From UHGV virus genome UHGV-0036853: a stretch of DNA of 64,000 nt. One strand, 5' to 3'. The position numbers were made by a program, and so were the translations under genes. The notes under the pieces were generated by a model. That model was not told where the DNA came from. It was given only the letters and a program-made list of their open reading frames with translations, and searched no databases. The DNA is from a virus. Positions 24,856 to 48,140 of this stretch are shown piece by piece (the first letter of the stretch is position 1; the number at the start of each line of letters is the position of its first letter).

Positions 24856-24910
24856 CCTGCTTCCGTATATATATTTAATAAGTTACTTATTATTTAAATA
24901 CAGAAACAGG
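24856..24910. repeat. large imperfect palindrome A with flanking conserved tail (agctgccagaccgg)
   Basis: arms cctgcttccgtatatat / atacagaaacagg around the TAAGTTACTTA core. Confidence 0.7.
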
Positions 24911-24940
24911 TTCTGATTGAAGCTGCCAGACCGGAAGTTG

Positions 24941-25300
24941 TCAGCCTTTTTTCATGAGTTCTCGCTTGATTTCATCGGTACGCATCGTTACATCGGCAGC
25001 TGTGATCGCCTCGTTAAGTTTCACGATGTCCTCGATTTCCTGCGGTGTCTTCTCCGCAAGATGGAAAATAGCAGCACGAATCACATCAGAGCGGGTGAAT
25101 TTCTCGAAGCGAGGGATGAACTTCATCATCTCCAGCAGTTCGAAGTATTCGTCTTCCAGTGACATTGTGCGGCTTTTAATTTTCTCTTTGCCACGAGTCG
25201 GGCGTCCCTGTGGTCTGACTGGTTGGCGCAAAGGAGTTGTGTTCTTAGCCGGTGCATCAGGCTCTTTGCGCTTTGCTAGGTCACCCATTTTCATGGACAT
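24941..25300 (-). CDS. small partition-associated DNA-binding protein (ParG-like, putative)
   Basis: small basic protein immediately downstream of and coupled to the ParA gene. Confidence 0.4.
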   Translation of the reverse strand: MSMKMGDLAKRKEPDAPAKNTTPLRQPVRPQGRPTRGKEKIKSRTMSLEDEYFELLEMMKFIPRFEKFTRSDVIRAAIFHLAEKTPQEIEDIVKLNEAITAADVTMRTDEIKRELMKKG

Positions 25301-25968
25301 TATTCTTCTTCCTCCAGACTCAACAGATAATCTACAAATTCTTCAAACTCGGCTTCCGCCTTTTTGTCGCGCTCGCTACCGGTCATTTCAAAGATAGAAC
25401 GACCAGACTCTTCCGCATCATCGTAGACGTTGCGGTTATATAGATTGACAGGCGCAGACTCGATGCCAAACGTCTCAACAATCTCTTTAGCCGCCAGAAT
25501 GCGAGACACTTGTGATGGCAAAGCCGGGCACTGGTTCATGACCGCGCGGACCTTCACTTTATCGTTTACATTGCGAACATTGTCGATAATAGGATCGATG
25601 TCACGTAAAGATTTCAAATCACGACGCTTAGGACGCAGCGGGATAATGATAACGTCGGCCATCAGCATCGCTTGTCGCTGAATTTCGGAGTCAAAGCCAC
25701 CAGCATCTACCACTACAAACTCAGCTCTACCCTGAAGCGATTTTAGGTGCTTAATGATGTCATCCTGAACGTATGCAAAAGGAATCAGCTCAAGATCTTC
25801 GTTCTGTCGACGGTCTTCACACCAGCTTGTTGTAGTGCGCTGAATATCTATATCAGTGATATAAACCTTCTTCTTCTTTTTGACTTTCAGGCAAACGGCA
25901 ATTTGCTGGGCAACAGTAGATTTGCCAGGCCCGCCCTTTGTGCCGCCAACCACAAAGATCTTGGTCAT
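25300..25968 (-). CDS. ParA/ParF-type partition ATPase
   Basis: deviant Walker A GGTKGGPGKST. Confidence 0.8.
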   Translation of the reverse strand: MTKIFVVGGTKGGPGKSTVAQQIAVCLKVKKKKKVYITDIDIQRTTTSWCEDRRQNEDLELIPFAYVQDDIIKHLKSLQGRAEFVVVDAGGFDSEIQRQAMLMADVIIIPLRPKRRDLKSLRDIDPIIDNVRNVNDKVKVRAVMNQCPALPSQVSRILAAKEIVETFGIESAPVNLYNRNVYDDAEESGRSIFEMTGSERDKKAEAEFEEFVDYLLSLEEEE

Positions 25969-25986
25969 TGGAGAGTTCCCTTTGCG

Positions 25987-26035
25987 TATATAATTATCGT
26001 CTGAAACAACTTGTTTTCTTATATGTGATATAGCC
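25987..26035 (-). promoter_or_regulatory. motif family 2 copy upstream of ParA gene
   Basis: gaaacaacttgttttcttatatg. Confidence 0.5.
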
Positions 26036-26105
26036 TAAATGCCTACGGCTGTGGTGTAAAGGTTTAATGATAGGTACATAGATTTGGTAAGGACTTAATA
26101 ACAAA

Positions 26106-26125
26106 AAACCCGCCGTAGCGGGTTT
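26106..26125 (-). terminator. intrinsic terminator
   Basis: cccgccgtagcggg hairpin followed by T-run on minus strand. Confidence 0.6.
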
Positions 26126-26130
26126 AGGAA

Positions 26131-26907
26131 TTAGTGGTTGGTAGACCTGGCATCAAATGTTGTAACGCCCACTTCAATGTGGCGGTCTTCTTTGGAGATG
26201 ATGGTGAGAATCTGACTAGATGGGTCTATGCTGACAGCCATAGGGTTCCAGTGACGTAACTGAGCCTCGCTGTTCAATAGCAGCGCATCCCACGGTTTGA
26301 CGCCATTCTGCCCAATACCACCTTCAACAAGGACATCTATAAATTCTTTATTTAAATTGTCATAGATTTGGACACGCCCGACCAGAAGCATACCGACCGC
26401 CCAAATTCTGGCACCGTAAACCGTCTGATGGTCATCACATACCACATGGTCATGCCAATTGAGAAGGAAATTGTAAACTCTTCTAGCAAGTCCCTTTTGT
26501 TCCTTTGAAGGGGTTACAAATGCCCCTTTGATCTGGACCCCAAGGTGAGAGCCTTTTTGTGAGCGAAACTGGAAACGTTTGTAGACGAACCTGGCAATCT
26601 GAATGCCGTCATCATCTTCTTGTTCATCACCAACTAACTCACGAACACTATGAACTATCTCTGCTTCTGAATACCCCTGCTCGTCAAGATCCATTGCATG
26701 TTCTTGAAGCCAATCTGCATCAGGGTCGCCTACAAATGATACTGTCAAACAGTAATCATAATTAGATCCCGTCAAGGACCATTCTGTGAGCCGTAAAACA
26801 GAAAAATCAGAGTTAACCATGTAGCCAACTCTGATTTTTTCTCTTGTTTCACATTCAGGGAAATCAGACAGTACTTTTGAATACTCTGCTATGAATGATG
26901 GTGACAT
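26131..26907 (-). CDS. hypothetical protein
   Basis: ORF only. Confidence 0.45.
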   Translation of the reverse strand: MSPSFIAEYSKVLSDFPECETREKIRVGYMVNSDFSVLRLTEWSLTGSNYDYCLTVSFVGDPDADWLQEHAMDLDEQGYSEAEIVHSVRELVGDEQEDDDGIQIARFVYKRFQFRSQKGSHLGVQIKGAFVTPSKEQKGLARRVYNFLLNWHDHVVCDDHQTVYGARIWAVGMLLVGRVQIYDNLNKEFIDVLVEGGIGQNGVKPWDALLLNSEAQLRHWNPMAVSIDPSSQILTIISKEDRHIEVGVTTFDARSTNH

Positions 26908-27306
26908 TTAGTTCGCTAGCCGCATATCCGTAGGTGAATCCAGTTTCGCTATTTTAACATCTACGCGGTATTTATCTTTGATAAATTTAGCTATTTTGCT
27001 TTCAATCTCATAGAAAGCATCCGGTTCACAACGCACAACATCGGGAAACTGTTTTTCTGGCTTAACAAGGAAACGTAACCGATTGTTGAGCACCATCATT
27101 TCTGCAAACAATTTGATGGTAAACTTGCCTTCTTCAACGTCACTTTTAAGGTTAACGATGAAACGCTGATCCTTAAGCATACCTGGTTTGTTCATTTCAC
27201 GAATTTGGAGCGAGTCATCCCAGTACCGCAACGGAACCGATGCGATCATCTTGGTACAGTCTCTTATCGTCTGAATAGAACGAGATGCGTTAAGTGCAGT
27301 ATGCAT
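26908..27306 (-). CDS. hypothetical protein
   Basis: ORF only. Confidence 0.45.
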   Translation of the reverse strand: MHTALNASRSIQTIRDCTKMIASVPLRYWDDSLQIREMNKPGMLKDQRFIVNLKSDVEEGKFTIKLFAEMMVLNNRLRFLVKPEKQFPDVVRCEPDAFYEIESKIAKFIKDKYRVDVKIAKLDSPTDMRLAN

Positions 27307-27480
27307 GTTTCCACCTTAGCCGGTAATAACTTTATGTCATAGCGGCGACCTTGTCGGTTTAGAGGCTACGAGTATGCGTCGATTTATTAAAACAAGGTAT
27401 GATTTACTTGACATCCATGCATCAAATCTACCTTGTGCTCTAATAATATGCAAATTTTATGTTAGAAAACGCCACTTTTG

Positions 27481-27711
27481 TTATGGCACTTTTCTGCCCC
27501 ATCCACACAATCGCTCCCCAATCATATTGTGAAAAAGCACCTCTCTTTCAGTCTCTTCGGTCATGAGATCATCACGGCTGATGTATAGCGGTGTAGCCGC
27601 ATCGCAGAAAAGCACACCAGCGGGTTGAGGCTTAATCACGCAACCACTTATTGTGCAACTCATGATGAACAGTAGAAGCATCCTTGCGCCGTAACTCATC
27701 AAGTGTTTCAT
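27481..27711 (-). CDS. putative o-spanin (Rz1-like lipoprotein)
   Basis: lipobox ISGC after MKHLMSYGARMLLLFIMS; start taken at the internal Met of track ORF 27481..27789. Confidence 0.4.
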   Translation of the reverse strand: MKHLMSYGARMLLLFIMSCTISGCVIKPQPAGVLFCDAATPLYISRDDLMTEETEREVLFHNMIGERLCGWGRKVP

Positions 27712-27883
27712 TTTTGACGTCCACTGTGCTTTGAAGTCGTTTCCTGTCTTCCTGTTTTGCCTTCTCTTCCATTGCTCGTCGCGCCGCATTTCCGCCCATC
27801 GTGTAAGCGCCGACCAGAACGAAAAGAACGGCAGCCAGCGTAATCAAAGCAACTTTTAGCTTTGTCATCAGGCTGCCTAGCAT
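27632..27883 (-). CDS. putative i-spanin (Rz-like)
   Basis: N-terminal TM helix then charged coiled-coil region; overlaps lipoprotein ORF in another frame. Confidence 0.4.
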   Translation of the reverse strand: MLGSLMTKLKVALITLAAVLFVLVGAYTMGGNAARRAMEEKAKQEDRKRLQSTVDVKNETLDELRRKDASTVHHELHNKWLRD

Positions 27884-27884
27884 A

Positions 27885-28604
27885 TTAGACCATCCCTTTC
27901 TGGTGTCTTCTCACCTGCGACCAGGCGATAAATCCAGCCACAACAATAGTGGCAATACCGAAGATGATGCGTACTGTATCCCCGCTAGAGATATGACCTT
28001 GTGCTTTATCCATAGCAGCGGAAACCTGCGGCATAACATCGGCCAGCTGCGCCAGACCAATACCTGCTGTAACAGTTGCGCCTGCTGTTTCTTTAGTTAC
28101 AGGAACAGCCTTCACGGTTTTCACCGGCTTAACGACGCCAGCTCGACGCAGACCTTCCTCAATAACTTCTGCCGCATACCAGGTGTTCAGCGTTTTTAGC
28201 GGACCTCGCCCATTCTCATGGCGAATGATTGCCTCAACCAAAGGTCGAAGAATGTCGTAATCATGCAGATCGATAATCATGTCTGCGGTTACACCAACGG
28301 CTTTAGACACCTCATTAATGTAGGCGTCAGTGTTGTTTTCATTCGGCGGTGCCCAACGTTCAATAACTTCACGAATGGTATCGATACTTGAGCCGTCTTT
28401 TGCGCGACGTTTGTCGTGGTAGGTAATTAGAGTCACCGCCAGCGCACGAATCCCCCAAACAGGGTCTTTAAACGTGCAAAAGCGCGGTTCGTCTGGATTC
28501 GCAACCAGACCTTGCCACGGTGATCCTTTATCAAGATTACCGGGGTTATTATTACGAATGCCTCTCGGAGTCTTCATCCTTGATCTCCTGTTATTGCAGT
28601 CCAT
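27885..28604 (-). CDS. lysis-cassette protein with C-terminal membrane anchor (endolysin-like, uncertain)
   Basis: position next to spanins; hydrophobic C-terminal helix; no catalytic motif recognised. Confidence 0.3.
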   Translation of the reverse strand: MDCNNRRSRMKTPRGIRNNNPGNLDKGSPWQGLVANPDEPRFCTFKDPVWGIRALAVTLITYHDKRRAKDGSSIDTIREVIERWAPPNENNTDAYINEVSKAVGVTADMIIDLHDYDILRPLVEAIIRHENGRGPLKTLNTWYAAEVIEEGLRRAGVVKPVKTVKAVPVTKETAGATVTAGIGLAQLADVMPQVSAAMDKAQGHISSGDTVRIIFGIATIVVAGFIAWSQVRRHQKGMV

Positions 28605-28926
28605 TTTTTACGCCATACGCGGCTAACCCCAAAAGCAGTGCAGTAATAATGAACGACGTTATTTTAGAAACAATGCCGCCAAAGAACCCACTGGAGATGG
28701 AATCTAACCGGTTAAGGAGCTTGTCCAGATTGGAGTGTTGAATACTATGTTGCGCCGGGGTCATATCACCAAAGTAGGTTTTCAGCTGATCATTGACCTC
28801 CTGGCCAATTTCTTCACGTAGCTCTTTACCTAATTTGCCAACAACCTCCCGAGCAACGATCGCGGCAATACGCTCAACTTGCTCTGTTGTAACGCCCGCC
28901 ATCTCGTTCGACATGTTTTCCTCCAT
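28591..28926 (-). CDS. small membrane protein (C-terminal TM)
   Basis: hydrophobic C-terminal helix ITSFIITALLLGLAAYGV. Confidence 0.35.
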   Translation of the reverse strand: MEENMSNEMAGVTTEQVERIAAIVAREVVGKLGKELREEIGQEVNDQLKTYFGDMTPAQHSIQHSNLDKLLNRLDSISSGFFGGIVSKITSFIITALLLGLAAYGVKNGLQ

Positions 28927-28995
28927 GAAAAGTCAAATCGGGATGGCGGATTTATATCACATTTCACCCTTTTGTTGTAGGTGTGTACTTACCTA

Positions 28996-29229
28996 TCATT
29001 CAGCATTGCAACGGACTGATGAGAAAGCACCTACTCCTACCCATCGCCAGTTATAGATGCTACCCGCTTTGTATAAGGTATAGTCGTTCACTTTTTTAAC
29101 AGCATATATGGGTATGACTGTCTCCTGTCCACCAATGATAGCCTCACCATAACATATAGGTGTCGGCAATTTCTGGCAGCCAGTAAGAGAGAGAACAACA
29201 GCTATTGTTAGAAATAATCTTTTCATCAT
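28996..29229 (-). CDS. small lipoprotein
   Basis: signal peptide with lipobox LTGC. Confidence 0.5.
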   Translation of the reverse strand: MMKRLFLTIAVVLSLTGCQKLPTPICYGEAIIGGQETVIPIYAVKKVNDYTLYKAGSIYNWRWVGVGAFSSVRCNAE

Positions 29230-29236
29230 TTACTCA

Positions 29237-29845
29237 TCAGTTATACAGATTTCTATTTATTACCGGTACTCTGCCATTTACGCTAAAACTATGGCCGCCA
29301 TTAAGTTGGTTTACGAATATCGAGCTAACAGTATTTCCATATGCCGCATATCCATAAACCATTGTCATGGCTCCGCCCGGTACTGGAACAGCGAACACAT
29401 TCGCATATGTTGGGATTATCGCTGGTGGGTAATCAAAAACATGCCCTCCAGAGCTGTTCCACTCCGTATTATTAAGAAAGGTAAATGAAAGTGGGATATT
29501 TGCCGTATTATAGATTTCCTCCCCTTGTGCATTGAAAAAACTCATGCCCCAAGTTTCTTTTTTGGCTATACCTTTCGAAAATACGTATATCGTGGCACTA
29601 GAGTCGCTACCCTGACCTCCGAAACTGTAAATCACCTGGTTGTTACGCACTATTCTGTTGGCTATTAATGAAACAGCTTTCGAATAGGCAACAAAAATCA
29701 TCGGTGAACGATCTGGAGATATTTGGGTGTTAAACTCTGTCCCGCCGGACAAAGAAACAACCTGCTTTCTCTGAAAAACGATAGGAGACAAAGAAGGAGA
29801 CATCCAGACCTTCCCGTCAGATCGATATATCTTGCTTCCGTACAT
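29237..29845 (-). CDS. hypothetical protein downstream of tail fibre
   Basis: ORF; start overlaps upstream stop (TAATG). Confidence 0.4.
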   Translation of the reverse strand: MYGSKIYRSDGKVWMSPSLSPIVFQRKQVVSLSGGTEFNTQISPDRSPMIFVAYSKAVSLIANRIVRNNQVIYSFGGQGSDSSATIYVFSKGIAKKETWGMSFFNAQGEEIYNTANIPLSFTFLNNTEWNSSGGHVFDYPPAIIPTYANVFAVPVPGGAMTMVYGYAAYGNTVSSIFVNQLNGGHSFSVNGRVPVINRNLYN

Positions 29846-30099
29846 TATTTTTGAAAAACCAATATGTTTAAATTACCACTAGCTCCAGACCATGAAATGG
29901 TATTTCCAGAAACCGTAAGACTTGTGTATTTCCCATTGGTTACGTCCATTATGTAATAGTCGATTCCCAATCCCGCCTCAACATCATATGTTCTACTTCC
30001 AGAACCAGAGGGAGTAAAATAATCGAGGTAATAAACAGGGGCCAACGCATCGACCATCTCCTGTCTTGATGGCGACCAAACCTGTGCACCATAGCTCAT
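29845..30099 (-). CDS. hypothetical protein downstream of tail fibre
   Basis: ORF. Confidence 0.4.
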   Translation of the reverse strand: MSYGAQVWSPSRQEMVDALAPVYYLDYFTPSGSGSRTYDVEAGLGIDYYIMDVTNGKYTSLTVSGNTISWSGASGNLNILVFQK

Positions 30100-30189
30100 A
30101 AATATATCCTTATAACTGCGGTTGTGAGGCCATATTTATCGACCTCACAACCATCTTATAAATTATCCTTATTAGAAATAATGTCTAAA

Positions 30190-33100
30190 TCAGTTGCTTG
30201 TTGCCCCAACAGTACCGGCAAATTTCAGCCATTGACCTGACGGACTTCTATTACTACGGTAGTGATAAACGAGGATTGCGTTTGTCACTCCACCGTAGTC
30301 AGCTTTATGTGACGTTGTTAAACGAATTGTATAATCACCGTTAGGTAGATTAAAAACTTCGATTATAGATTCTGCTAATTCTACAGCACCAAATCCCGTT
30401 ATATTGTTGATACTGCCAGCATTGAATCCCATAGCATCGCCAAAGCCAATCCAATAACTTTTGCTAAATGCCCCATTTGATTTAAGGTGGCTAATGAATG
30501 TGGACAAACTCATGCCCATATCCCCACCAGAAACAGAGGAAGTTCGCACAGTCATGCTTGGAAGAGAACTACTCTTCACATAGGAACTGAGAAGGTTTGT
30601 TACCTCTGTTTTCGTATAAGCATTAAGGTTAGCCGCAGTCAAAGTTATATCGGCAGAGCCATCAAACGCCACACCAGCAATTTTCCTTGCTGTCTGCAAT
30701 TTTGTGGCGGTTGCAGCATTACCAGTAGTGTTCTGATTACCGGTCGTATTCACACCAGGTAAGTTAATATTGGCTGTACCGTTAAAACTAACACCACCGA
30801 TAGTACGAGCCGTTTGTAACTTCGTGGCTGAAGCTGCGTTACCAGTCGTATTCTGATTACCCGCTATATTAACACCCGGCAAGTTAATATTGGCGGTACC
30901 ATTAAACGACACACCTCCAATTGTTCTGGCTGTCTGCAACTTCGTTGCAGAGGCTGCGTTGCCAGTAGTGTTCTGATTACCGGTGGCATTGACACCTGGA
31001 ATAGAGTCTTTGGACGTATAAACTTGCGCCCATTCAGACCAACTGGATGCATCCGTATCTCGTCGCGAACGTACATGTACAGGCGCATGAGCACCACTTG
31101 TACCGCTCCAACCTATGAACAACTCACCTTCACCAACGGCCGTTGCGCCCTTAAGATGAAGCACATTCCCGTAAGTCGAAGGGTAGCCATTGTTATATGC
31201 CTCGTACATCTGCAATCCAGTCGCAGCACCTTGTGTTGTACCGGTGAGCGCAGTAACGCGTCCTCTGGACGTAATTGTTGGTATTGAAATATTCGCAGAG
31301 CCGTTAAACGACACCCCGTTAATAGTTCTAGCAGTTTGCAACTTGGTCGCTGTGGCCGCGTTACCGGTAGTGTTCTGATTACCGGCAGCATTAACACCAG
31401 GCAAATTAATATTCGCAGTGCCATCGAAGCTAACACCACCGATGGTTCTTGCTGTCTGCAATTTAGTAGCTGTAGCAGCATTACCTGTGGTGCTTTGGTT
31501 GCCAGCTTTGTTAACTCCGGGCAAGTCGATGTTGGCAGTTCCGTTAAATGAAACGCCACCAATCGTTCTTGCCGTTTGAAGTTTTGTAGCGGTTGCGGCA
31601 TTACCAGTAGTGCTCTGATTACCTGCCGTGTTTACACCAGGCAAATTTATGTTCGCAGATCCATCGAAGGCCACGCCGCCGATAGTTCTTGCAGTCTGCA
31701 ATTTCGTGGCGGTACTCGCATTGCCATTCAATGAACCAGTTAATCCACCAGTAACAGACAACGGACCTGAAACCGTCCCTCCTGATGTTGATAATGCACC
31801 TATATCCGATGGCGTAGGTTTGTATTTTGTATTGTAGTCTCGTCGCCAGCCTGGAGAATAATCTGTCCCGTGGTTAATATAAGTAAATTGAGCGTTAGCA
31901 GTACCACCACCGCTAGATGTTGTTGGTGTGGTAACGCGGATCGTCATTGCTGACTTTATCCCCATTACCTCAATTACTGCCCCGGCAAGATGAATATTGC
32001 CACAACCAGTATCAGTAATGATTTTGTTGTTGCCATACGACCATGAGCCTTTACACATCCAGTACGGATGATTAAACGCCCCTTGAGAGTCCAACCATTC
32101 GACAAACTGTGCCGTAGTCCAGTTTCCTGCTGTTGTACTTACAGAGCCTCCAAATGCTCGCCCAGCGCCAATATTTTTCGTGAAGGTATCCTTACCTGGT
32201 ATATCAGCACCATTCTGGTTCTTCGCCAATCGGCTATTCGCATTGTCATTCGCAGCTTTAACTGCCTTTGGAGTTGCAGCCAGTGATTCGCTGGTGCTAT
32301 CGACAGCACTGCTAAGTTTCACAACACCTTTAGTTGTAAGGCTTGCGTCTTCCATCGCAACTGCACCGGCAATCTCTTCAGCACGATCAGCGGCAGCTTC
32401 TGCACGGGTCGCAGCGGATTCAGCAGCAGTTTTGCTCTGAGATGCAGCCGTCGCACTGCCTGCCGCCTCTGTTGCTTTCGTGGATGCCGTTGAAGCACTA
32501 CCCTTCGCAGCTGATGCCTGCTTGGTCGCCTCATCCTTTGAAGCAGACGCCGAGGTGGCTGATGCTGACGCAGAACTTGCAGATTCAGCAGCCGCAGTCT
32601 TAGAGGAAGCGGCATTGTCTTCTGAAGACTTTGCATTTGTTTCAGAGGTTTTCGCTGCTGATGCTGAATTTTTAGCGGCTGTAGCCTGATTCGTCGCCTC
32701 AGTCGCTTTTGCGGTAGCTGTTGCCGCTGATGACGACGCGCTTTCCGCAGATTTTCCTGCCGCAGTTGCACTTGATGAAGCACTATCCGCACTTGCTGAG
32801 GCTGCGCTTGCTGACGCTTCTGCCGCAGATTTCGAACTGTTTGCAGACGATGCACTCTGCCCGGCTGCCGTTTCAGATGCTTTTGCGTTTGTCTCTGACG
32901 CTTTTGCTGCCTTAGACGAATTTTCAGCTTCTGTTGCAAATGATGCCGCCGCGTTTGCACTCGATGAAGCGTTAGCCTCTGATGCTTTAGCCGCATCCTT
33001 AGATGCAGAGGCACTGGACGCAGATGTGGCCGCCTCCGATGCTTTAGTCGACGCTACAGATGCTGATTCTGCTGCCGCGACATATGCTGATTCTGCGTTC

Positions 33101-33717
33101 GTTTCAGATTTTTTCGCAGCAGTTGCACTCGCACTTGCAGCACTTTGTGAGGATTCCGCAGCGGATGCACTTTGAGACGCTTGAGAGGCTTTTTCTCCAG
33201 CGGTATTGGCGCTTTCTGCTGCTGCGGCAGCACTGGCCGCCGCCTCACGAGCTTTGTCGCCAGCAGCGTCAATCGCATCGGTGTTATTTTTATACCACTC
33301 AACGTTTTCGTTGTGCTCGTTGACGATCTGCATCAGCGGCTTAACGGTCACTTCTGTACCGTCTTCACGCTCGATTGTCACCTCATCCAGCGCAGTCAAC
33401 CAACTGCGCATGGACTTGGAATCAGCCGACATACGCGACATTAGCGCAGTAAAGCGCGCGCTAAACTGTGTTAAGTCGCCTTCATAGGTCGTAATGATTC
33501 GGCACGGAACTTCAGACTGAGTTTCGCCGGTATAAGGTTCTGAGAGAACAATATTCGTATCGCTTGTTACGCGCTTGATCTCATACAGCTTATTGTCGGG
33601 GCCAATGACGATCATCCCCGGCAACACACCATTAGCTGTTACGTTCCAGGCTGTCCCAACCCCAACCAGAGTATTGCTACCCTGTGTAAATGTGATAGTA
33701 CCTTCCCTGTACCACAT
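30190..33717 (-). CDS. long tail fibre protein with Ala/Ser-rich stalk and tandem repeat units
   Basis: 1175 aa; about 8 copies of GVSFNGTANINLPGVN..GNQNTTGNAA.ATKLQTARTIGG; long A/S/E-rich low-complexity region. Confidence 0.75.
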   Translation of the reverse strand: MWYREGTITFTQGSNTLVGVGTAWNVTANGVLPGMIVIGPDNKLYEIKRVTSDTNIVLSEPYTGETQSEVPCRIITTYEGDLTQFSARFTALMSRMSADSKSMRSWLTALDEVTIEREDGTEVTVKPLMQIVNEHNENVEWYKNNTDAIDAAGDKAREAAASAAAAAESANTAGEKASQASQSASAAESSQSAASASATAAKKSETNAESAYVAAAESASVASTKASEAATSASSASASKDAAKASEANASSSANAAASFATEAENSSKAAKASETNAKASETAAGQSASSANSSKSAAEASASAASASADSASSSATAAGKSAESASSSAATATAKATEATNQATAAKNSASAAKTSETNAKSSEDNAASSKTAAAESASSASASATSASASKDEATKQASAAKGSASTASTKATEAAGSATAASQSKTAAESAATRAEAAADRAEEIAGAVAMEDASLTTKGVVKLSSAVDSTSESLAATPKAVKAANDNANSRLAKNQNGADIPGKDTFTKNIGAGRAFGGSVSTTAGNWTTAQFVEWLDSQGAFNHPYWMCKGSWSYGNNKIITDTGCGNIHLAGAVIEVMGIKSAMTIRVTTPTTSSGGGTANAQFTYINHGTDYSPGWRRDYNTKYKPTPSDIGALSTSGGTVSGPLSVTGGLTGSLNGNASTATKLQTARTIGGVAFDGSANINLPGVNTAGNQSTTGNAATATKLQTARTIGGVSFNGTANIDLPGVNKAGNQSTTGNAATATKLQTARTIGGVSFDGTANINLPGVNAAGNQNTTGNAATATKLQTARTINGVSFNGSANISIPTITSRGRVTALTGTTQGAATGLQMYEAYNNGYPSTYGNVLHLKGATAVGEGELFIGWSGTSGAHAPVHVRSRRDTDASSWSEWAQVYTSKDSIPGVNATGNQNTTGNAASATKLQTARTIGGVSFNGTANINLPGVNIAGNQNTTGNAASATKLQTARTIGGVSFNGTANINLPGVNTTGNQNTTGNAATATKLQTARKIAGVAFDGSADITLTAANLNAYTKTEVTNLLSSYVKSSSLPSMTVRTSSVSGGDMGMSLSTFISHLKSNGAFSKSYWIGFGDAMGFNAGSINNITGFGAVELAESIIEVFNLPNGDYTIRLTTSHKADYGGVTNAILVYHYRSNRSPSGQWLKFAGTVGATSN
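30680..31700 (-). repeat. intragenic tandem repeats (~110 bp units) in tail fibre gene
   Basis: near-identical DNA units encoding the repeated fibre motif. Confidence 0.7.
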
Positions 33718-33809
33718 GTTGAATATGCTCCTTGATTTGGCGGGCTATCCTTGCCCGCCATTAAGTAAGTACATACTTATTTTTACCGATGTAAATATTT
33801 TTTTCTACA

Positions 33810-36800
33810 TTACAGAAGGCCAATTCTTACTCGTAGGACGTTGTTATCGTCATAAACGTCAATCCGCTGACCATTTATGACCAGTCGCCCATTACCTCCG
33901 CTATTACCGTTGATCTCAAGCGTTCCATTTTTGCCGAACCGCCATCCAGATCTACCGCTAACAAAATTGGTAGATTGCAGATCGCCTACTTTTGCATTGG
34001 TGATTGTGCCATCCTTGATATACGCACCATTCATATAGGCGATACTGTTTTCGATAACAAATGGCGTGGTGATCTTCCCGTTAACAGAGTTGACCAAACC
34101 AAATCTGTCCGCCTGCACCAAAAACTGAGAAAGACCGGTGGTGTCGATACCAAGCGCAATACCGGCAACATACTTCTGCCCTCCGCTCGTTGAAGTCTCC
34201 ATTTTCAACGTCCACGCGGTTGAGACTTTTTTGTTGGTATCAGCAATGGCCGTTGCCTGCTGTTGAATTGTCGCGGTATTTCCATCCACCTCTGCTTTCA
34301 GAGTATCGATTCGCCCACTTAGAGCATTATCTGCCTGCGTTCTCGCTGTCGTTTCAGTTGTGACCGCCGCAGAAATGTTGGCTGCTGTTTGAGACTCTAA
34401 GTTTGTGATTTGAGTCGCCAGTGCCGCATCTTGCTCTGTACGCGTTTTCGTTTCGGTTGCTACAGCCGCTTTAATATCCTCTTTGTATTGAGAGGTCAGC
34501 TTGGTGATCTGAGATGACAACGCCGAGTCAGCATCAGTTCGAGCCTGCGTTTCAACTGCAACGGCCGCACTAATATCTTTCGCAGTCTGTGCTTTTAAAC
34601 TTGAAACCTCTTTTGTTAAAGCGGTATCACCATCTGCACGAGCCGTTGTTTCTCTGGCAAGAGATGCCTCGAGATCATTAGCTTTTGCTGTAAGAGACGT
34701 AATCTGAGTGGACAATGCACTATCGGCATCAGTCCTTGCCTTTGTCTCTACAGCAACCGCTGCGGCAATATCAGTTCCGGTCTGTGCTCGCAGGCTGTTA
34801 ATTTCTCGTGAGAGCGCCTGGTCAGCACTTGCCCTGGCCTCCTGCTCCTGAGTGATGGCAGCGGATATATCACCGTCAACCTTTGACTGAAGCTGGTTTA
34901 TTTGTTTGGCTAATGCAGAGTCCCCGCTTGCTCGAGCCTCCTGCTCACTACGTATTGCAGCAGAAATATCATCATCAACCTTTGCCTGAAGTTGGGTGAT
35001 CTGACTTGCCAGAGCCGAATCTTCCGTTGCTCGGGCTTCTTGCTCTTCCTTAATAGCTGCGACGATATCGTTGCTTACTTTCGACTCAAGCTGAGTGATC
35101 TGTGTCGTCAGAGCTTCATCGGCAGATGTACGAGCCTCCTGCTCTGTACTAATCGCCGCGCTGATATCTCCTTCAAACTTAGATTGCAGCTGAGTGACAC
35201 GCTTTGCCAACGCTTCATCGCCATCGGCACGAGCGGTGGACTCTTCCAGAATACTGGCCTTAATGTCTTCGCCAATTTCTACGCGAATTTCCTCAACCTT
35301 CGTGGCCATTGCAGACATATCATCAGCAAAGGTTTTCTGTGTTGTTGCGATCTTCGCGTTATTGACCATCTGCTTGTGCTGGTCTTCATCTTGACGAAGA
35401 GCCAGGTCAATATTTGTTTTGGCTAACGCCTCAATGTTCGTAGTCAGTTCTGCACTGGCACGATCGACCTCTGCAACCGTCTTTTTCATTTCTTCAACAG
35501 CAGCGGAGCTTTCCTCTACCGTTGACTGCAACACTTCCAGTTGTTTAGCGTTTGCAGCATCGCCTTCAACACGAGCCTCGCTTTCCTTAGCAATAAGAGC
35601 TGCTGCTTCATCTCTTGCAGCCTTTATTGCCTCGACTGTATTAGCGAGAGCTTTATCGTGTTCAGATACGGTGTTTTCGATTTCAACAATTGCAGCATCA
35701 GTAGCATCAATTTTTTCAAACGCTTCATTGACCTTGTCGATCGTTGCCGAAACCTCACCTTTAAGCTCGGTTTGTGCGTTCTCCAAAGCATCGCTACGCT
35801 CGTTGAATTTTATTTCAAAATCCGCGAGGTTATCGCTGAACTGCTTATCTAATTCAGCTATATCTTCCTTAACGTCGTTTACCGACCCCTCCAAAGATTC
35901 GACGCTCTGGTTGATATGCTCATTTAACTCGTCAACTGCTTCTTGAGAGGCTTTGCTGTTGATGTCCTCAAGCAGAGCCTGACCAAGCTCAGACGATGTA
36001 ATCTTACCTTCCAGGAACGACAGTACATCGCGAGTTGTCGCCTCTGTACCCAAGTTTGAGTTCGGAGGACTTAACATGCCGCGCTTGTTCGATGCTCGAA
36101 CCCAGTAATACCACGTTTCACTATCCCCAAGACCAGCATGTGTAAAGGTGGTGCTTGCAGACTCCGCGATCAGTTTCGCCGTATCCAGATTGTTGGTCTG
36201 GGATGCGTAAACATTAATGTGATCAAGGTCTACCGAATCTGGATTAACCCAATTTAGTATCACATTACGATAGTCTCCAACGGCCGTTAATGACGTTGGT
36301 GCATCCGGCGGTGTCATTGTGCCCAGCACCTGATAAACGGTACTGATAATTTCTGTTTTTTTACCGTTGAATGAAACCGCATACAGTTGGAAGTCGTAGC
36401 GTCCATTCTCCGCGACATTAACGATTTCGTATTGCTCTTCGGTTACACGCGCCGATTGCCAGTTCGATACATTGTTTTCATCAGAACGTCGCCAACTGAT
36501 CCAATACTCTGGAGATTTCCCTTCCCATGTTGCAGTCAGTTTTACTGACAGGTTTCCCGGGCTTGAGAGATAAGTCCCTTCAGTGATTTGCAAATTAGAT
36601 GGCTTGGAGTAAGTCGGGTCCAATACCGTCGTATTCTGCGGGATAAGCGTTGCACCATTGTCGATTGCCTCATATTTAGACGGATTGTTCTCAACAGCGG
36701 TGATGTCAAAGCTACCCGGCGTTTCCCCCTGCGCGATGTTAACGATGCGAACGCGCATAGGTTCGAGATCTGGTTCTGTAATTGTCCAGACACCGTTCAA

Positions 36801-40618: not shown

Positions 40619-40700
40619 TGTTTCATCCTTGAAATAAGTAGGCGCTAACATCCTGTCAGCGCCACAATGATAGTAAATTAGTACTTACTTATCCAGATAC

Positions 40701-41036
40701 TTAAGCCTCAAATACTTGTCTGAATGGAGCGGTTAATACTGCGTACCCCTGATATCGCTTGACCGTATGACTGTCACATACAACTACAATCCGTTTTCCT
40801 CTTGGATTAACCCAATAGAACGACTCAACGCCTGCTCGCTCAGTCAGGAAGTCATCGATTGCATTAATTTCGTTGTATGATCTGGTAAAGGTTAACGACC
40901 ATTCTTCTTTAATACGATTAAGACCTTGAGCTTGTCGCTGCTCGTAGTCATCACCAAAATTAAGTACCGTTACATTCGGTTTTACGCTTTTTTCAGATTC
41001 GTAATCTGGATACCAATTAAACGTTTGTCTTTCCAT
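40701..41036 (-). CDS. minor tail protein M-like
   Basis: size, position, FGDDYEQRQAQGLN block. Confidence 0.7.
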   Translation of the reverse strand: MERQTFNWYPDYESEKSVKPNVTVLNFGDDYEQRQAQGLNRIKEEWSLTFTRSYNEINAIDDFLTERAGVESFYWVNPRGKRIVVVCDSHTVKRYQGYAVLTAPFRQVFEA

Positions 41037-41078
41037 CTCACATCCTTGTGAGACTGCCCCGGTCGGGGCAGTCGATAG

Positions 41079-42595: not shown

Positions 42596-42612
42596 TTCTT
42601 GCTCCTACAAAA

Positions 42613-42637
42613 AGGGTGGGCGTATAGCCCACCCTTA
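42613..42637 (-). terminator. intrinsic terminator after capsid gene
   Basis: gggtgggc...gcccaccc hairpin followed by TTTTTGT on minus strand. Confidence 0.7.
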
Positions 42638-42668
42638 AACTTAGATAATTACTTATCTACCGCACTGA

Positions 42669-43544
42669 TTAAATTTTTACATTGGTCAGTGCAGCGATAG
42701 CCTTATCGTGCTTATTCGCCAGAGAGCAGTACCACTTCACACGGGTACGTACTGCGTCTTTGTTCTGTACAGTACCAATGTTTTCAACAACGATACCTGC
42801 GTTATCGCCGCCATACAGACCAGTAACGCCGTTCTCTTCTGACAGATGCAAGCAGTAGATGCTTGCTTTGCCAGCATCGGTCGGGATGAAGTCGTTGATG
42901 ATGAACGGAACGCCGTTATGACACAGCATCGGACGACCGAAGTTCTCCATCATGATTTCAGACGGACCTACATTTACTGTACGCAGCAGCGCACGGTAAG
43001 CACGAAGGTGCTCTGAACGCATCATGATGCAGTCAGCACCAAGATCTTTCACCGCATCGACCAGTTCGTCGAACATAGAGAAAGTCATAGATGCACCGGC
43101 GATATCGATCTTCTGATCTGCGTGCATCAGGCGTGGAATACCGTCGAACGCTTTGTTGTTGGAGCTGGAGTCACCCAAAATCAGGTTGCGGCGGAACGCA
43201 CGAGCCAGACCTTTAACTTTCTGACGAACCTGAATAGCCAACTGGTTATTGGTGTCGGCCATAGTGGTTGCCAGGAATTTATCAACGTCTACGTCACCAG
43301 CCAGAATACGCAGTTTCGCAACGCATTCTTCGAAGGTTGCTGCACCTTCAGGGATGGTGTCGTTAACGTCGATGAAGGTAGCTTCACTCAGCGTTTTTTC
43401 ACGGTTGTACAGATATGCCTTTGAATTAATTTTCATAAAAGGCAGGATGGCAAACAGGTCATCGCGATCGATGATAGTTTCGATCACACCCTGTTCAAGT
43501 TCGTTGTTAGACAGCTTTTCAGCTTCTTCACGCAGTAATGGCAT
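42669..43544 (-). CDS. putative major capsid protein
   Basis: position after scaffold-like protein, followed by strong terminator; no direct fold evidence. Confidence 0.45.
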   Translation of the reverse strand: MPLLREEAEKLSNNELEQGVIETIIDRDDLFAILPFMKINSKAYLYNREKTLSEATFIDVNDTIPEGAATFEECVAKLRILAGDVDVDKFLATTMADTNNQLAIQVRQKVKGLARAFRRNLILGDSSSNNKAFDGIPRLMHADQKIDIAGASMTFSMFDELVDAVKDLGADCIMMRSEHLRAYRALLRTVNVGPSEIMMENFGRPMLCHNGVPFIINDFIPTDAGKASIYCLHLSEENGVTGLYGGDNAGIVVENIGTVQNKDAVRTRVKWYCSLANKHDKAIAALTNVKI

Positions 43545-43569
43545 CTATCAATTCCCTTTGATTTAGATG

Positions 43570-44457
43570 TTACTTAAGTCCAATTTTCCCCAGACCGGAG
43601 GCCAACTTATCCATAGTCGACTTGTTCTTCGGTTGGGATATTGTGTAGGTCGATTTGGAATGTGAGCCTACACCCTGCTTGGCTTCGCTACGCATCAATG
43701 CGTCAGCTTCCGGATCTGCCCGCACAATGCGTTCAATCGCGGATTCAAACGGCAACGGCTTACCTTCACCGTCAACCAGAACAGCTCGTTCTTTATGACC
43801 TGCCGGTTTGTCATAACCCACTACGCTACCGTCTTCACCCACTTCAAAATGAGAACCGTAGATCACGCGGGCTTTTGCCGGAGTCATCAGAACTTTGTCA
43901 CGTAGGAAGAGAGAGTTACTGAAGGAAGCGCCCACGGTCATCTCGACTAATTGAGATTTCAGTGATGCGTTTTCACTTTCCAGTGCTGCATAACGTTCGT
44001 CACGCTGTGCCAGCTCTGCCTGGTGTGCTTCGATCATCTGTTTTTTAACAGCATCGAACTCACCACGACGCTCCAGTTCAGCTTGCTCCGCCTCACGACG
44101 TGCGTTTTCTGCGGCCTGTTCAGCTTCTAAAAGCTGGCGAGCACGCGCCGGGTCGATATCACCGTACTGAGCAAGCTGATCGGCCAATGTGCGCTCTTTC
44201 TCTTTGCGCTTCATGTTCTCTTTCAGCAGTTCAGCACCAGCTTTCTTGGTTTTGCGAAGTTCGACCAGTAACTCTTCATGAGTCATGCCAGCGTATTCGT
44301 CATCACCCTTCGGCTGCTCTTTTTGTTCACCCTGCTTGTCAGGATCTTGTGTACTCTGCTCATTATCAGCAGCTACACCGCCAGCGCCCCCACGCTCATG
44401 CGCTTCAGCAACATCCATCAGACCACGACGGGCCAAAAGCATTTGCCACAGTTTCAT
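43570..44457 (-). CDS. putative scaffolding protein (coiled-coil, charged)
   Basis: E/A/R/Q-rich heptad region between portal and capsid genes. Confidence 0.45.
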   Translation of the reverse strand: MKLWQMLLARRGLMDVAEAHERGGAGGVAADNEQSTQDPDKQGEQKEQPKGDDEYAGMTHEELLVELRKTKKAGAELLKENMKRKEKERTLADQLAQYGDIDPARARQLLEAEQAAENARREAEQAELERRGEFDAVKKQMIEAHQAELAQRDERYAALESENASLKSQLVEMTVGASFSNSLFLRDKVLMTPAKARVIYGSHFEVGEDGSVVGYDKPAGHKERAVLVDGEGKPLPFESAIERIVRADPEADALMRSEAKQGVGSHSKSTYTISQPKNKSTMDKLASGLGKIGLK

Positions 44458-44478
44458 AAAAATTCCCTTTGTTACTTA

Positions 44479-46053
44479 TCACTCGTTCTCTTGAGTAGAT
44501 GAGTCCCCATTCCCTCGGGGTTGATCTTGCCCGCTTTCTTGGGCCACACCACGATCATAAGTAAGTACTGACTTATTTTCAAGGGTATTTAGATCATTTT
44601 TTGGCGGAAAATTCAAGAGATCTTTATCAAATTCCTTTTTCATCGCCTCAGTAATGTTCGGGAAAATCTTCTCAATAAGCATTTCCATCTGGTGACGACG
44701 TACAGAGTCCGGTGCCTGAAGTAATGACAGTTTCTCGGCAACAGAAAATTCATCTGTAAGGCCACGAATATCGAAACTTTCTGGATACGCAATTAAAGAG
44801 TGGTCTTCGTCCAGATCTACCCCCATCCATTTCGCAACCAGTAGCATGATTTGGCGTTCAGCCCTTTCCAGACGCTCTGCTTTTGTGACAAGCAAGCTAT
44901 TTACACGCTGGAAGTCATACATTTTTGCGGCACCAGATGAGTTATCGATTCCCTGTGCGTTGTCCTGCTTCGTTCGCTCACCAGCTACACCAACTGAATG
45001 GTAGATTTCGTTAATCACCGTCTTAATCGTAGTGATGATCATCTGAGCTTGTTTCGGGTCTGGTGACAGATAAAACGGCTGGTTTCCACCTTCAGAATCG
45101 TAGGTGAAGACTCGCTTTGTGCCCATTTCAAGCACTTTAGTGTGGTTTTCATCACCAGGTAAAAGCGACTGTACCGGTATAGCCAACTGGCTAAATGTCT
45201 GATCCTGAATAATGGCATCAAGGTTTGACAGATAGTTTGCAACCGCACGATCAAGATAAGCGATATCATCGATCAACGATGGGCTGAAATACGGTGATTC
45301 ACTTTCTCCAATACAATCAACAGGAAACACAGGAACTACGCCGAGATTATGCTCACCGCTATCCTCTAAAATAACTTTTGCCTGACGGCGACCTGCTCCA
45401 CCAGCGCCCTTCTTCACTTCCTCACGGAACAGATACCACTCGTTTTGTGTCCACAGACGATAACGTTGGTATTCCTGACCTGTAGAAGTAAAAGGATCTG
45501 CGTCATCACGAGCGACTTCCACAATTAACGCCCACAACATATTCCCGTCGTCGTCCCATGCCACATCCAGCATTTGCTGAGGTGAAATCCAGTAGGCGTA
45601 GGCGCGAGCATCTTTCTTTTTCTCGTCAGCTACTGACTCAACATCACCACTCATCGTGCTATCGACAACAACCCATATGCGACCGTAAATAGACGACTGC
45701 AAATCAATAGCGGCCATAAATGAGTCAATAGAGGCATTCTGGCGAGTCGCACGTTTCCAGAAATTGCGGATCTGCTCTGGTGCCTCTTCGATATTTCTAT
45801 GAATGTCTTCTTTAAAGAGATATTTGTTGATGAGGTTTACCACCTCACGAGTGTGGTTGAAGCGATAAGCACGTTCAACTCGCTCCTTAAACTCCTGATC
45901 TCCCTCTTTAAAGTAACGAAAGATATTGTCTGTAAACCAACCACGCCCGCCAGCGTAAGTGCTGGCGAGGAAGTCCCAATGTTCTTTTTTCTTTTCGTAT
46001 TCCGGGTGGCGTCGCGCCACCAGATCCTTAATTTGTTTGTCGTTCAATTCCAT
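44479..46053 (-). CDS. putative portal protein
   Basis: 524 aa directly downstream of terminase large subunit. Confidence 0.55.
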   Translation of the reverse strand: MELNDKQIKDLVARRHPEYEKKKEHWDFLASTYAGGRGWFTDNIFRYFKEGDQEFKERVERAYRFNHTREVVNLINKYLFKEDIHRNIEEAPEQIRNFWKRATRQNASIDSFMAAIDLQSSIYGRIWVVVDSTMSGDVESVADEKKKDARAYAYWISPQQMLDVAWDDDGNMLWALIVEVARDDADPFTSTGQEYQRYRLWTQNEWYLFREEVKKGAGGAGRRQAKVILEDSGEHNLGVVPVFPVDCIGESESPYFSPSLIDDIAYLDRAVANYLSNLDAIIQDQTFSQLAIPVQSLLPGDENHTKVLEMGTKRVFTYDSEGGNQPFYLSPDPKQAQMIITTIKTVINEIYHSVGVAGERTKQDNAQGIDNSSGAAKMYDFQRVNSLLVTKAERLERAERQIMLLVAKWMGVDLDEDHSLIAYPESFDIRGLTDEFSVAEKLSLLQAPDSVRRHQMEMLIEKIFPNITEAMKKEFDKDLLNFPPKNDLNTLENKSVLTYDRGVAQESGQDQPRGNGDSSTQENE

Positions 46054-46079
46054 TTGAATAACCTTAGATAATTACTTAC

Positions 46080-47336
46080 CTATCGAGAACCACCAAGAAT
46101 AACACGGTTTTTGACTGGATACCTACGATGTACTGGATAGCCCAATGCGTCTGCACTATGCTCAATGCCACCTGTCTTATCCATATCTCGTGTTCCAGGC
46201 TTGTAGATGACTTTTTCCAGTGAATCAATCAAATGCTTGCACTTCGGATCGATATACAACCGGATATCTCCAGATGCGGTCATCAGCATTCGGTTAACAG
46301 CATTAACACGATCCGCAATTGGCGGGTGCTTTTTCGAATAATCGACACGTAAGAATCCCTTCTCTTTGAAAATGTCGACGTCAGACTCCCCGCGAGCATG
46401 TTGGCGATAAGCACCTGCCGGATCTGGAAATACCGTTATCTGTGATTTCCAGCGCCAGAAGCGTCTCTCAAGCTCATCACAAACCTCTGCCGTGTTAGAG
46501 GAAAAGAGCACCAATTCATCAATTGCCCATAGCTCGCCGTTTGGCTGAGGTTGCAAAATTACGGAAGACATCGGGTCAATGTTGAAGTCCTGTCCTACCC
46601 ATATAGGCAACCGAGGGTTGAATTGAAGCGGTTTAACATGCACGTTACGATCGAACGGGTAGTAAACGCGACCGGACATGTTCTCAAAGCTGGCTAGGTA
46701 CTCCTGAGCGAACGATTTGGGGTCCATATCGTTCTTAGCAGCTTCAATTTCCGCCGTAGGTACAAACGGAGAATCGGCAGTTACAAACTGCCAGCTCTTC
46801 CACTGTCCCTTTCGTTGCAGCTCTACGTTCTGACCTATAGTCCACAGTTTGTGAAATTCCGAGAAGCCTTTTGGCGTTCCAATGATCAGTGCACCGCCGC
46901 GTGTCGATGAAAGAGTTGGTCGTAGTACCTTGTACCAGGTATCAGCCTTCATATCCTGAAATTCATCAAGCACTACAAAATGCAACGCAACGCCGCGCAG
47001 AGTGTCAGGCTTATCAGCACCTTTAAGGGCGATCTCCGAACCGTTCTTCAACACGATTGTCATCGTGGTGTCGTTCTTTTTCCTAACCCACTTACGAGGC
47101 AGAACTTCCTGTAGATCGTCCCACAAAATCTGACGAGCCATCTGATAAGTCGGGGCGACATACCAGACCCTTTGCTTTTTTTCCTTTGCAGCCGCACGAA
47201 TAATAGTTGAGATCGACAACCGGGATTTCCCCCAGCGTCGACCAGCACAAACAACTTTAAATCGATGCGGTGACTGGAAGACTTTCATCTGTCCAGAATG
47301 CAACTGCACAAGACTTAGAGAGGACGGGATTGCCAT
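46080..47336 (-). CDS. terminase large subunit
   Basis: Walker A CAGRRWGKS, Walker B FVVLDEF, C-terminal nuclease-like region. Confidence 0.8.
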   Translation of the reverse strand: MAIPSSLSLVQLHSGQMKVFQSPHRFKVVCAGRRWGKSRLSISTIIRAAAKEKKQRVWYVAPTYQMARQILWDDLQEVLPRKWVRKKNDTTMTIVLKNGSEIALKGADKPDTLRGVALHFVVLDEFQDMKADTWYKVLRPTLSSTRGGALIIGTPKGFSEFHKLWTIGQNVELQRKGQWKSWQFVTADSPFVPTAEIEAAKNDMDPKSFAQEYLASFENMSGRVYYPFDRNVHVKPLQFNPRLPIWVGQDFNIDPMSSVILQPQPNGELWAIDELVLFSSNTAEVCDELERRFWRWKSQITVFPDPAGAYRQHARGESDVDIFKEKGFLRVDYSKKHPPIADRVNAVNRMLMTASGDIRLYIDPKCKHLIDSLEKVIYKPGTRDMDKTGGIEHSADALGYPVHRRYPVKNRVILGGSR

Positions 47337-47968
47337 TATTCGTCCTCCCCTTCACTTCCATCATCTGTCGCATCAAATTCGCTTAGAGCTTCTTCTTCCA
47401 AAGTCTCAAGCAATTCGTCATCGATGATTTCAGGCTCGTCGTCTTCCTGACGTAATTTCGCCACCTGGGAAGGTGTAAGCTCACCAAATACCAAGTTCGG
47501 AATTTCTTCCTCGTCATTTTCTGCATGATCCATACCCAACGCTTTGGACGAAACTTCAAAGCATTTTGCAAGGGTATTACTTGCTCTCTGTAAGCTCTTG
47601 AGAGAATCCTCAATCGCCCCTAAAGGCTTACCCTCACGTTTGGCCGTAGTGACTTCGACCATCACCATCTGCCCCAACGCATACGCCCAGCCGTCATAAC
47701 GTGTACGACGTTCTTCTATCTTTTCCGCACGGGCTTTAGCGCGAAGCTCTGCGTCAGATTTAAGAGACTCACGAACCATCTTCCCAACAGAGTCCGCGCC
47801 TTTCTCTAATCCTCGCTTTTTGAAATGTCTGGAGAGTGTTTCACGACGAATGCCGTACTCTTCCTCCAGCTTTGAGAGTGTATATTCGCCTGACGTCCAT
47901 TTGGCTTCAGCTTCGGCCCACTCAGCTGGTGTCAGGCGAGTTTTTACCTCGTCTTTTTCGACCGTCAT
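47336..47968 (-). CDS. putative terminase small subunit
   Basis: HTH-like N-terminus, acidic C-terminal tail, coupled to large subunit. Confidence 0.45.
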   Translation of the reverse strand: MTVEKDEVKTRLTPAEWAEAEAKWTSGEYTLSKLEEEYGIRRETLSRHFKKRGLEKGADSVGKMVRESLKSDAELRAKARAEKIEERRTRYDGWAYALGQMVMVEVTTAKREGKPLGAIEDSLKSLQRASNTLAKCFEVSSKALGMDHAENDEEEIPNLVFGELTPSQVAKLRQEDDEPEIIDDELLETLEEEALSEFDATDDGSEGEDE

Positions 47969-48007
47969 AGATCCCTCTAAAACACACAGAGCGCGTCCAT
48001 GCGCTCT

Positions 48008-48066
48008 AAAACAACTTGTTTACTGCATCTGCTAACCAACTTGTTTTCTGGGGTGTTTAATTAGGT
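48008..48066 (-). promoter_or_regulatory. two motif family 2 copies upstream of terminase small subunit gene
   Basis: aaaacaacttgtttac and ccaacttgttttctgg. Confidence 0.5.
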
Positions 48067-48085
48067 CTGGGCATATCTTACTAAG

Positions 48086-48140
48086 CCTGCTTCCGTATAT
48101 ATTTAATAAGTTACTTATTATTTATATATACAGAAGCAGG
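48086..48140. repeat. large near-perfect palindrome B, second copy of element A
   Basis: arms cctgcttccgtatatat / atatatacagaagcagg around the TAAGTTACTTA core; followed by agctcccagaccg. Confidence 0.75.

Follow-up and report, generated by a model that had tools for sequence, protein, structure and literature searches.

Paralogous hairpin elements at three gene-block boundaries of SSU5-type phage-plasmids are candidate transcription terminators or insulators

T4-type phages reportedly carry mobile regulatory cassettes, the promoter-early stem-loops (PeSLs) that Arbiol, Comeau and Krisch are said to have described in 2010, and these cassettes are thought to unite regulation with recombinational shuffling. 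Centromere sites are dispersed in N15 and lie downstream of the par genes in some type Ib partition systems, and ribbon-helix-helix partition proteins usually bind arrays of short repeats. Here we describe a family of large intergenic palindromes in SSU5-type phage-plasmids, starting from two copies, A and B, in a stretch of 64,000 nucleotides of the virus genome UHGV-0036853 (hereafter the window, to which coordinates refer unless another record is named). By sequence comparison the window is an SSU5-like phage-plasmid with 97-99% identity to the Escherichia coli elements CMS-2020a, PhiR41_1 and Cyrano (pLF82), 85-88% identity to Salmonella phage SSU5 and ~80% identity to Klebsiella relatives. 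Elements A and B, with a third copy, C, that lies outside the window, are paralogous ~100-bp hairpin elements with an AT-rich centre at three fixed boundaries of these genomes, and we consider with moderate confidence that they are strong hairpin terminators or insulators between gene blocks in a unidirectionally transcribed genome. In the minus-strand transcript of each, a stem of 13-17 bp clamped by GC pairs (CCUGCUUC.../...GAAGCAGG) and topped by an AU-rich apex would make up a long hairpin, and this hairpin would stop or block transcripts arriving from the upstream block; genes needing silence in the plasmid prophage would in this way be shielded from expressed neighbours. The reading is drawn from the positions and polarity of the elements, the U-runs of A and C, a step in RNA sequencing (RNA-seq) values at A and the replacement of the element by canonical terminators in a sister lineage.

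The inner palindrome of element B (48086-48140, minus strand) consists of the arm CCTGCTTCYGTATATAT, a 21-nt AT-only core that includes TAAGTnACTTA, and a complementary arm. The original prediction, made from the sequence alone, had given B 17-bp arms with one mismatch, and direct reading and a palindrome scan both agree, with 16 of 17 pairs complementary; no comparable palindrome arose in 30 dinucleotide shuffles of the window. Element A (inner palindrome 24856-24910, minus strand) is, as had been proposed, a less perfect copy with shorter and more mismatched arms (CCTGCTTCCGTAT / ATACAGAAACAGG), and both of its arm mismatches are U.G wobbles on the minus strand. The two copies share an identical centre, AATAAGTTACTTATT, a search for which with up to two mismatches returned five matches against 0.15 expected, four of them being A and B read on both strands. 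The central 37 bp of the element are entirely A/T and are clamped by arms richer in GC.

A tail, agctSccagaccg, had also been noted behind each palindrome, and it is indeed present (24921-24933 and 48150-48162); rather than standing alone, it is one half of an outer inverted repeat that pairs GGTCTGG at 48064-48070 with CCAGACC at 48156-48162 around B, and TCTGG at 24833-24837 with CCAGACC at 24926-24932 around A. Each element is therefore ~100 bp long, a size on which inverted-repeat search and RNA folding concur: with its outer boxes GGTCTGG(G) and (C)CCAGACC, B spans 48064-48162, and A, with boxes TCTGG and CCAGACC, spans 24833-24932 (both minus strand). Folded as minus-strand RNA, B (111 nt) reaches -50.6 kcal/mol (z = -10.4) and A -29.1 kcal/mol (z = -4.7), so that on the transcribed strand both form the stable stem-loop with a GC-rich stem base that is looked for in an intrinsic terminator. 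An Rfam search returned only tRNAs and chance matches to miRNA-like hairpins, and no family. Two further ideas were dropped: the outer boxes as a genome-wide signal, since the enrichment of GGTCTGG and the depletion of TCTGGG both fit codon usage (GGT CTG), and TATAAATA within the elements as a T4-late-like promoter family, which in the window has four matches against 1.6 expected and is not enriched.

The family has three members per genome and not two, as had first been thought. In Cyrano, B lies at the record ends (0 kb), A at 31159-31211 (31.2 kb) and C at 78084-78138 (78.1 kb); in SSU5, B is again at the record ends (0 kb), with A at 33458-33513 (33.5 kb) and C at 78304-78360 (78.3 kb). 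All of these copies occupy intergenic gaps at operon ends, that of class C following an adenine methyltransferase gene that closes a nucleotide-metabolism/methylase block. Sequence resembling the B region occurs in 798 PLSDB plasmids from Klebsiella, Escherichia, Enterobacter, Yersinia, Salmonella, Citrobacter and Cronobacter, pMT1-type plasmids of Y. pestis such as pMT-pPCP included, and most E. coli plasmids among the matches listed match at three places per record. An arm-pattern search of IMG/VR matched more than 120 stretches, and the divergent-looking matches that were checked all belonged to SSU5-type genomes. When relatives were fetched through the small terminase subunit TerS alone, a retrieval free of any bias from the palindrome pattern, B was found upstream of terS in every close relative.

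Nearly all genes of the window lie on the minus strand, and the genes flanking A, B and C are all co-directional. The adjacency of A to the ParA/ParG locus and the position of B just upstream of terS, both part of the original prediction, agree with the gene coordinates. On the A side, parA (25300-25968), whose Cyrano homologue is expressed in the lysogen, is the upstream partner of a gene for a 119-aa ParG-like ribbon-helix-helix protein (24941-25300), the last in an operon that ends at A. On the minus strand, the stop codon of the ParG-like gene precedes A by 30 nt, and 117 nt separate A from the likely ATG (24738) of a 249-aa open reading frame (ORF; 23998-24747), the first gene past A and the head of a helicase-primase block; this ORF has no match in a Pfam search, and DnaB-like helicase and primase genes come after it. 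On the B side, an operon encoding ParB-N-domain proteins, an ABC-type ATPase and, as its last gene, an 88-aa winged-helix protein (48165-48431) ends at the element, and terS (47336-47968), the first gene of the late block, starts 117 nt downstream (all minus strand). Across the window, SSU5 and Cyrano, eight copies of A, B or C can be measured from the element end to the following start codon, and in seven of them this distance is 116-119 nt, the outlier being Cyrano C at 108 nt; Klebsiella B also departs, at ~95 nt. The downstream leaders of A, B and C show no homology on comparison despite their like lengths. With this layout, A would terminate the operon of par and cargo genes ahead of the helicase-primase block, C would terminate the nucleotide-metabolism/methylase block, and B would close the ParB-like/ATPase/winged-helix operon just ahead of the late promoter region and terS.

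The equivalent of the ParG-like gene in Cyrano, CYRAN_29, is the 119-aa gene after parA and is annotated as a 'RelE/ParE putative toxin', with no Pfam match. To judge from sequence and position, which fit a ribbon-helix-helix, ParG-type partner of a small ParA, the toxin label is probably a misannotation.

A transcript fall across element A can be read from gene-level expression values in the supplementary table of the LF82 study (PMC9928086), taken from overnight cultures in LB (lysogeny broth) of the strain carrying Cyrano/pLF82, a relative 97% identical to the window. Expression stands at 49.8 for CYRAN_28 (ParA), 89.1 for CYRAN_29 (the ParG-like protein) and 54.6 for CYRAN_30 (a hypothetical protein, called a 'moron' in the LF82 paper), and drops to 6.2 for CYRAN_31 (the 249-aa ORF), against a background of 9.8; in other conditions, log2 values reach 10.4 for CYRAN_30 versus 2.6 for CYRAN_31 (PMC9928086). 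The gap between CYRAN_30 and CYRAN_31 measures 193 nt and element A is its sole hairpin, so that the steep fall coincides with the Cyrano copy of A. We infer that hairpin A itself causes this fall and that B and C would act in the same way.

The elements are also polar. Directly 3' of hairpin A, the minus strand carries the U-rich tract UCUUUUAAAA (24846-24855), and class A copies of all lineages have 4-8 T in the 10 nt past the hairpin, although the sequence beyond diverges. Most class C copies have 4-6 T in the same interval across lineages. Among the non-Watson-Crick arm pairs of class A on the transcribed strand, G.U wobbles outnumber mismatches by 37 to 3, and arm position 9 is seen as C-G, U.G and U-A. 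When the copies are oriented by transcription, the downstream arm (...TATACGGAAGCAGG) is clearly better conserved than the upstream one.

More distant lineages show what takes the place of the element. In the Klebsiella oxytoca plasmid pCAV1099-111, canonical terminators with a GC hairpin and a T-run stand at the A and C positions and the adjoining palindrome has decayed; the order at both is a ~60-nt AT-rich stretch ending in a right-arm-like motif, then the terminator, then the decayed palindrome with an outer box. The palindrome is therefore no longer maintained where a standard terminator is present. At the B position, K. michiganensis and K. oxytoca have a hairpin in which the left arm CCTGATTCTGTAT is still recognisable and which has gained a T8 run. 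TerS homologues at 53-61% identity lead to relatives with other hairpins at this position, and in the more distant ones (TerS 53-58% identical) these hairpins are unrelated to B. Xenorhabdus and Moellerella have long AT-rich hairpins with different GC clamps, and a K. pneumoniae relative has an unrelated palindrome with 11-bp arms, for which a scan of viral contigs matched only unrelated phages. Separately, the AT-rich stretches of pCAV1099-111 at A and C (36255-36330 in L227 and 38525-38590 in L228) are nearly identical to each other, as would result if one site had recently been copied to the other in the same genome.

Several observations weigh against the elements being simple terminators. 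The RNA-seq values are given per gene, come from a 97%-identical relative, and are uninformative for B and C because in the lysogen the genes on either side stand close to background. Class B shows no U-run in the E. coli, SSU5 and Klebsiella lineages, with just 2-4 T among the first 10 nt past its hairpin, and its arm changes are uncompensated (G.A and C.A in Klebsiella), as are two C.A mismatches on the transcribed strand of Cronobacter class C; the wobble bias of class A could be explained by a C-to-T mutation bias on the coding strand. A simple consensus scan for terminators flags neither A nor B, the apical region of 21 nt contrasting with a canonical loop of 3-8 nt, because stem and loop are larger than normal terminator dimensions. 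Moreover, the 17-bp arms are kept as sequence and not as pairing alone, the outer boxes are retained at a variable spacing of 18-24 nt, and the right-arm motif persists at the K. oxytoca A and C positions without its partner arm. RNAalifold on a mixed alignment finds virtually no covariation, because the arms hardly vary. Arm-sequence conservation, the lone right-arm motif, the outer boxes and the lack of a U-run in B are not accounted for by a generic terminator and could reflect gene conversion between copies or a sequence-specific trans-acting factor. Lacking a U-run, B may therefore act more as a roadblock, or as a hairpin that defines or processes RNA 3' ends, aided by a canonical hairpin 80 nt further on.

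That canonical hairpin belongs to the leader between B and terS (47987-48049, minus strand), which also holds two palindromes of a second motif, family 2 (48006-48024 and 48034-48049). The hairpin (47987-48008, minus strand) comes right before the terS ribosome-binding site and covaries, with the compensatory changes GAGCGC/GCGCTC, GAGCAC/GTGCTC and GGCGTC/GATGCC; a U-run follows it in some lineages, that of the window included, and is absent in K. oxytoca. Its role may be to attenuate the late operon or to bind a regulator in the leader.

Partition, packaging and replication had been the original suggestions, and no support emerges for any of them as a role common to the family. Packaging bears on B above all: B would be, or contain, the cos or pac signal at which terminase cuts concatemers, with A and C as non-functional or auxiliary paralogues. 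We regard this as unlikely, and the presence in each genome of three copies with matching arms, where a single cleavage site is expected, tells against it for the whole family; B alone remains a candidate. Its position 117 nt ahead of terS is one where cos or pac is classically found, A and C not being near terminase genes, and some AT-rich hairpin stands at the B position in every lineage examined. In addition, both ends of the linear SSU5 record (JQ965645) fall within B (...CTTATTA | AATATATACGG), ~9.5 nt from the dyad, and the Cyrano record (OV696614) breaks one base away from it, the window equivalent being 48103/48104. The SSU5 copies share no identical run longer than 22 nt, and assembly collapse at a repeat is therefore no explanation for the SSU5 break. 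The junction in SSU5, however, has neither missing nor duplicated bases relative to the plasmid forms and hence no trace of cohesive overhangs, and the linearisation of Cyrano was likely copied from SSU5, the LF82 paper comparing the two without an analysis of termini (PMC9928086). The large subunit, TerL, belongs to Terminase_6N and is of the T4-like type, which also counts against this reading. Its distant relatives presumably include T5-like and Jersey-like phages, as opposed to lambda-type cos phages, and they do not settle the packaging mode; literature searches on SSU5 termini, cos sites, palindromes and terminators yielded nothing relevant. Should terminase prove to cut at B, the ends of the genome and the way it is packaged would be settled for these phage-plasmids in general; neither seems to have been reported. 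The same evidence admits a broader scheme, which we likewise think improbable, in which A, B and C are, beyond terminators, cis-acting DNA sites for a phage-plasmid protein that split SSU5-type genomes into three domains, B being the virion cut point hinted at by the SSU5 record and A and C extra entry points (lytic origins or secondary packaging or processing sites). A protelomerase target of the N15 telRL type was discarded: there are three copies, PhiR41_1 and the plasmid relatives are deposited as circular, and no protelomerase appears in the annotations inspected for SSU5 and, outside 100-105 kb, for Cyrano.

More doubtful still is the possibility that the elements act as assembly sites at the DNA level, for example as lytic replication origins or as targets of the adjacent ParB-like or winged-helix proteins. 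The 37-bp all-A/T centre would melt easily and is clamped by GC-richer arms, the arm sequence is conserved beyond pairing with TCTGG/CCAGA boxes on both sides, and the right-arm motif survives without its partner in K. oxytoca; A lies directly upstream of the helicase-primase block, and the SSU5-type genome encodes a T4-like replication and recombination set. Herpesvirus oriS/oriL and the two SPP1 origins offer a likeness in the form of an AT palindrome flanked by protein-binding boxes. Yet the boxes stand at spacings anywhere between 18 and 24 nt, codon usage confounds their statistics, sites that have a canonical terminator show a decayed palindrome, and no initiator was identified, the 249-aa ORF having no Pfam match.

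That the elements are selfish or neutral repeats of the MITE (miniature inverted-repeat transposable element) or ERIC (enterobacterial repetitive intergenic consensus) kind, with no function for the phage-plasmid, is highly unlikely. An imperfect ~100-bp palindrome in transcribed intergenic DNA would suit such a repeat, but the copies number exactly three and keep to the same places in at least seven genera, target-site duplications are lacking, and the searches made turned up no copy beyond SSU5-type replicons. Weakest of all, and very improbable, is the suggestion of the original prediction that the elements are centromere-like sites for partition, which would here serve the ParA/ParG-like system and be scattered in the manner of N15: A does adjoin parA and the parG-like gene, but B and C lie 23-47 kb away at two places unrelated to par, K. 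oxytoca retains ParA (74% identical) and the ParG-like protein (50%, the start of its putative DNA-binding segment, IKSRTMS-EDE, being nearly unchanged) while palindrome A has decayed, so that the element does not track the par proteins, a convergent gene sits between par and A in PhiR41_1, a palindrome of this kind is unlike the short-repeat arrays of ribbon-helix-helix partition proteins, and the family-2 palindrome conserved upstream of parA is the better candidate.

The family-2 palindrome, AAACAAnTTGTTTTCT, has at least 15 sites in the window, some of them ahead of parA, of the helicase gene and, in duplicate, of terS, at 12295-12313, 23974-23989, 26004-26019, 48006-48049 and 57901-62467. 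The last of these is a cluster at 57.9-62.5 kb in which two inverted copies create a palindrome with 17-bp arms at 62401-62464. The copy upstream of parA is also kept in K. oxytoca, where no other motif upstream of that gene is retained. Family 2 probably provides operators for a global regulator and is a better candidate than element A for the centromere or operator of the ParG-like protein.

Another motif, family 1 (ATAAGTAAGTACTTAT), occurs at 3525, 10137, 17795, 24755, 33761, 40677, 44557, 46068 and 51360, mostly in short intergenic gaps from a few to ~90 nt upstream of minus-strand starts, late genes included; the copy at 24755-24770 lies near the start of the 249-aa ORF. Its half-sites resemble the centre of A and B at a different spacing, and it contains the 10-mer ATAAGTAAGT, which we take to be shared with the core of the ERIC repeat. 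Elsewhere in the window, three tandem tRNA genes lie at 16803-17046 (minus strand), the equivalent cluster of Cyrano being annotated as Asn, Thr and Ser. Diverged internal repeats, of 120/300 nt and 99 nt, occur within large minus-strand ORFs at 30647-31708 and 34399-35216, which by synteny with Cyrano fall in the region of tail-fibre and host-specificity proteins.

The comparisons suggest a secondary role for the elements as well, and A borders a hotspot of cargo-gene exchange. At class A, at least 12 unrelated upstream flanks join the upstream (left) arm at the same nucleotide, and the downstream flank (...CCAGAAC...CCCTTCCGT) is constant across genera; of the 737 plasmids matched by a query spanning A, only 59 match over more than 80% of it. 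Between the parG-like gene and A, Cyrano carries CYRAN_30, PhiR41_1 a 768-nt gene on the opposite strand, and the window no gene (24911-24940). The flanks of B and C are conserved on both sides and no hybrid elements were seen. As the copies are alike and sited at module borders, they may act as recombination joints. Deletion products formed between elements were sought in small derivative plasmids and the idea was given up, pCsaCS931a being merely degraded, with only class C left.

A map of three insulators would explain how maintenance and cargo genes are expressed in the lysogen without leakage into lytic genes. SSU5-type phage-plasmids are common and poorly characterised, and include pHCM2 of S. 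Typhi, pMT1 of Y. pestis, pLF82 and many resistance-bearing plasmids of Klebsiella and E. coli; for annotators, the elements offer a landmark of module borders, and such a map would mark the cargo-swapping hotspot beside A.

Set against known systems, the elements resemble Rho-independent terminators, bidirectional ones included, in the GC-rich stem base at an operon 3' end, the U-run of A and C, the collapse of transcripts across A and their replacement by canonical terminators in the sister lineage. They differ in being far larger, with a 13-17 bp stem and a 21-nt structured AU apex extendable to ~100 nt, and in being three sequence-conserved paralogues across genera with outer inverted boxes, of which B has no U-run. 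With lambda-type cos and P1/SPP1-type pac sites, B shares a place just upstream of terS, partial dyad symmetry and a phage record linearised there, whereas the element is not unique in the genome, gives no evidence of overhangs and is accompanied by another terminase family. The linear plasmid-prophage N15 likewise has its centromeres dispersed over several palindromic sites, including one next to par; here, in contrast, the partition proteins are a small ParA and a ribbon-helix-helix protein, with which the putative site does not co-vary. The RNase III hairpins of phage T7 are similar long intergenic hairpins in a genome transcribed one way, where they define mRNA 3' ends; our elements have no Rfam match. 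PeSL cassettes, finally, share the occurrence of repeated intergenic stem-loops at module borders beside hypervariable cargo genes. The elements differ from them in being only three, at fixed positions, with A alone bordering a variable region, in having non-homologous downstream leaders and in having no promoter shown within the repeated unit. Neither an earlier description in the literature searched nor an Rfam family came to light for the element. Among the regulatory stem-loops already known from phages, namely intrinsic terminators, PeSL-type cassettes and T7 RNase III sites, it is best regarded as an unusual variant specific to this family.

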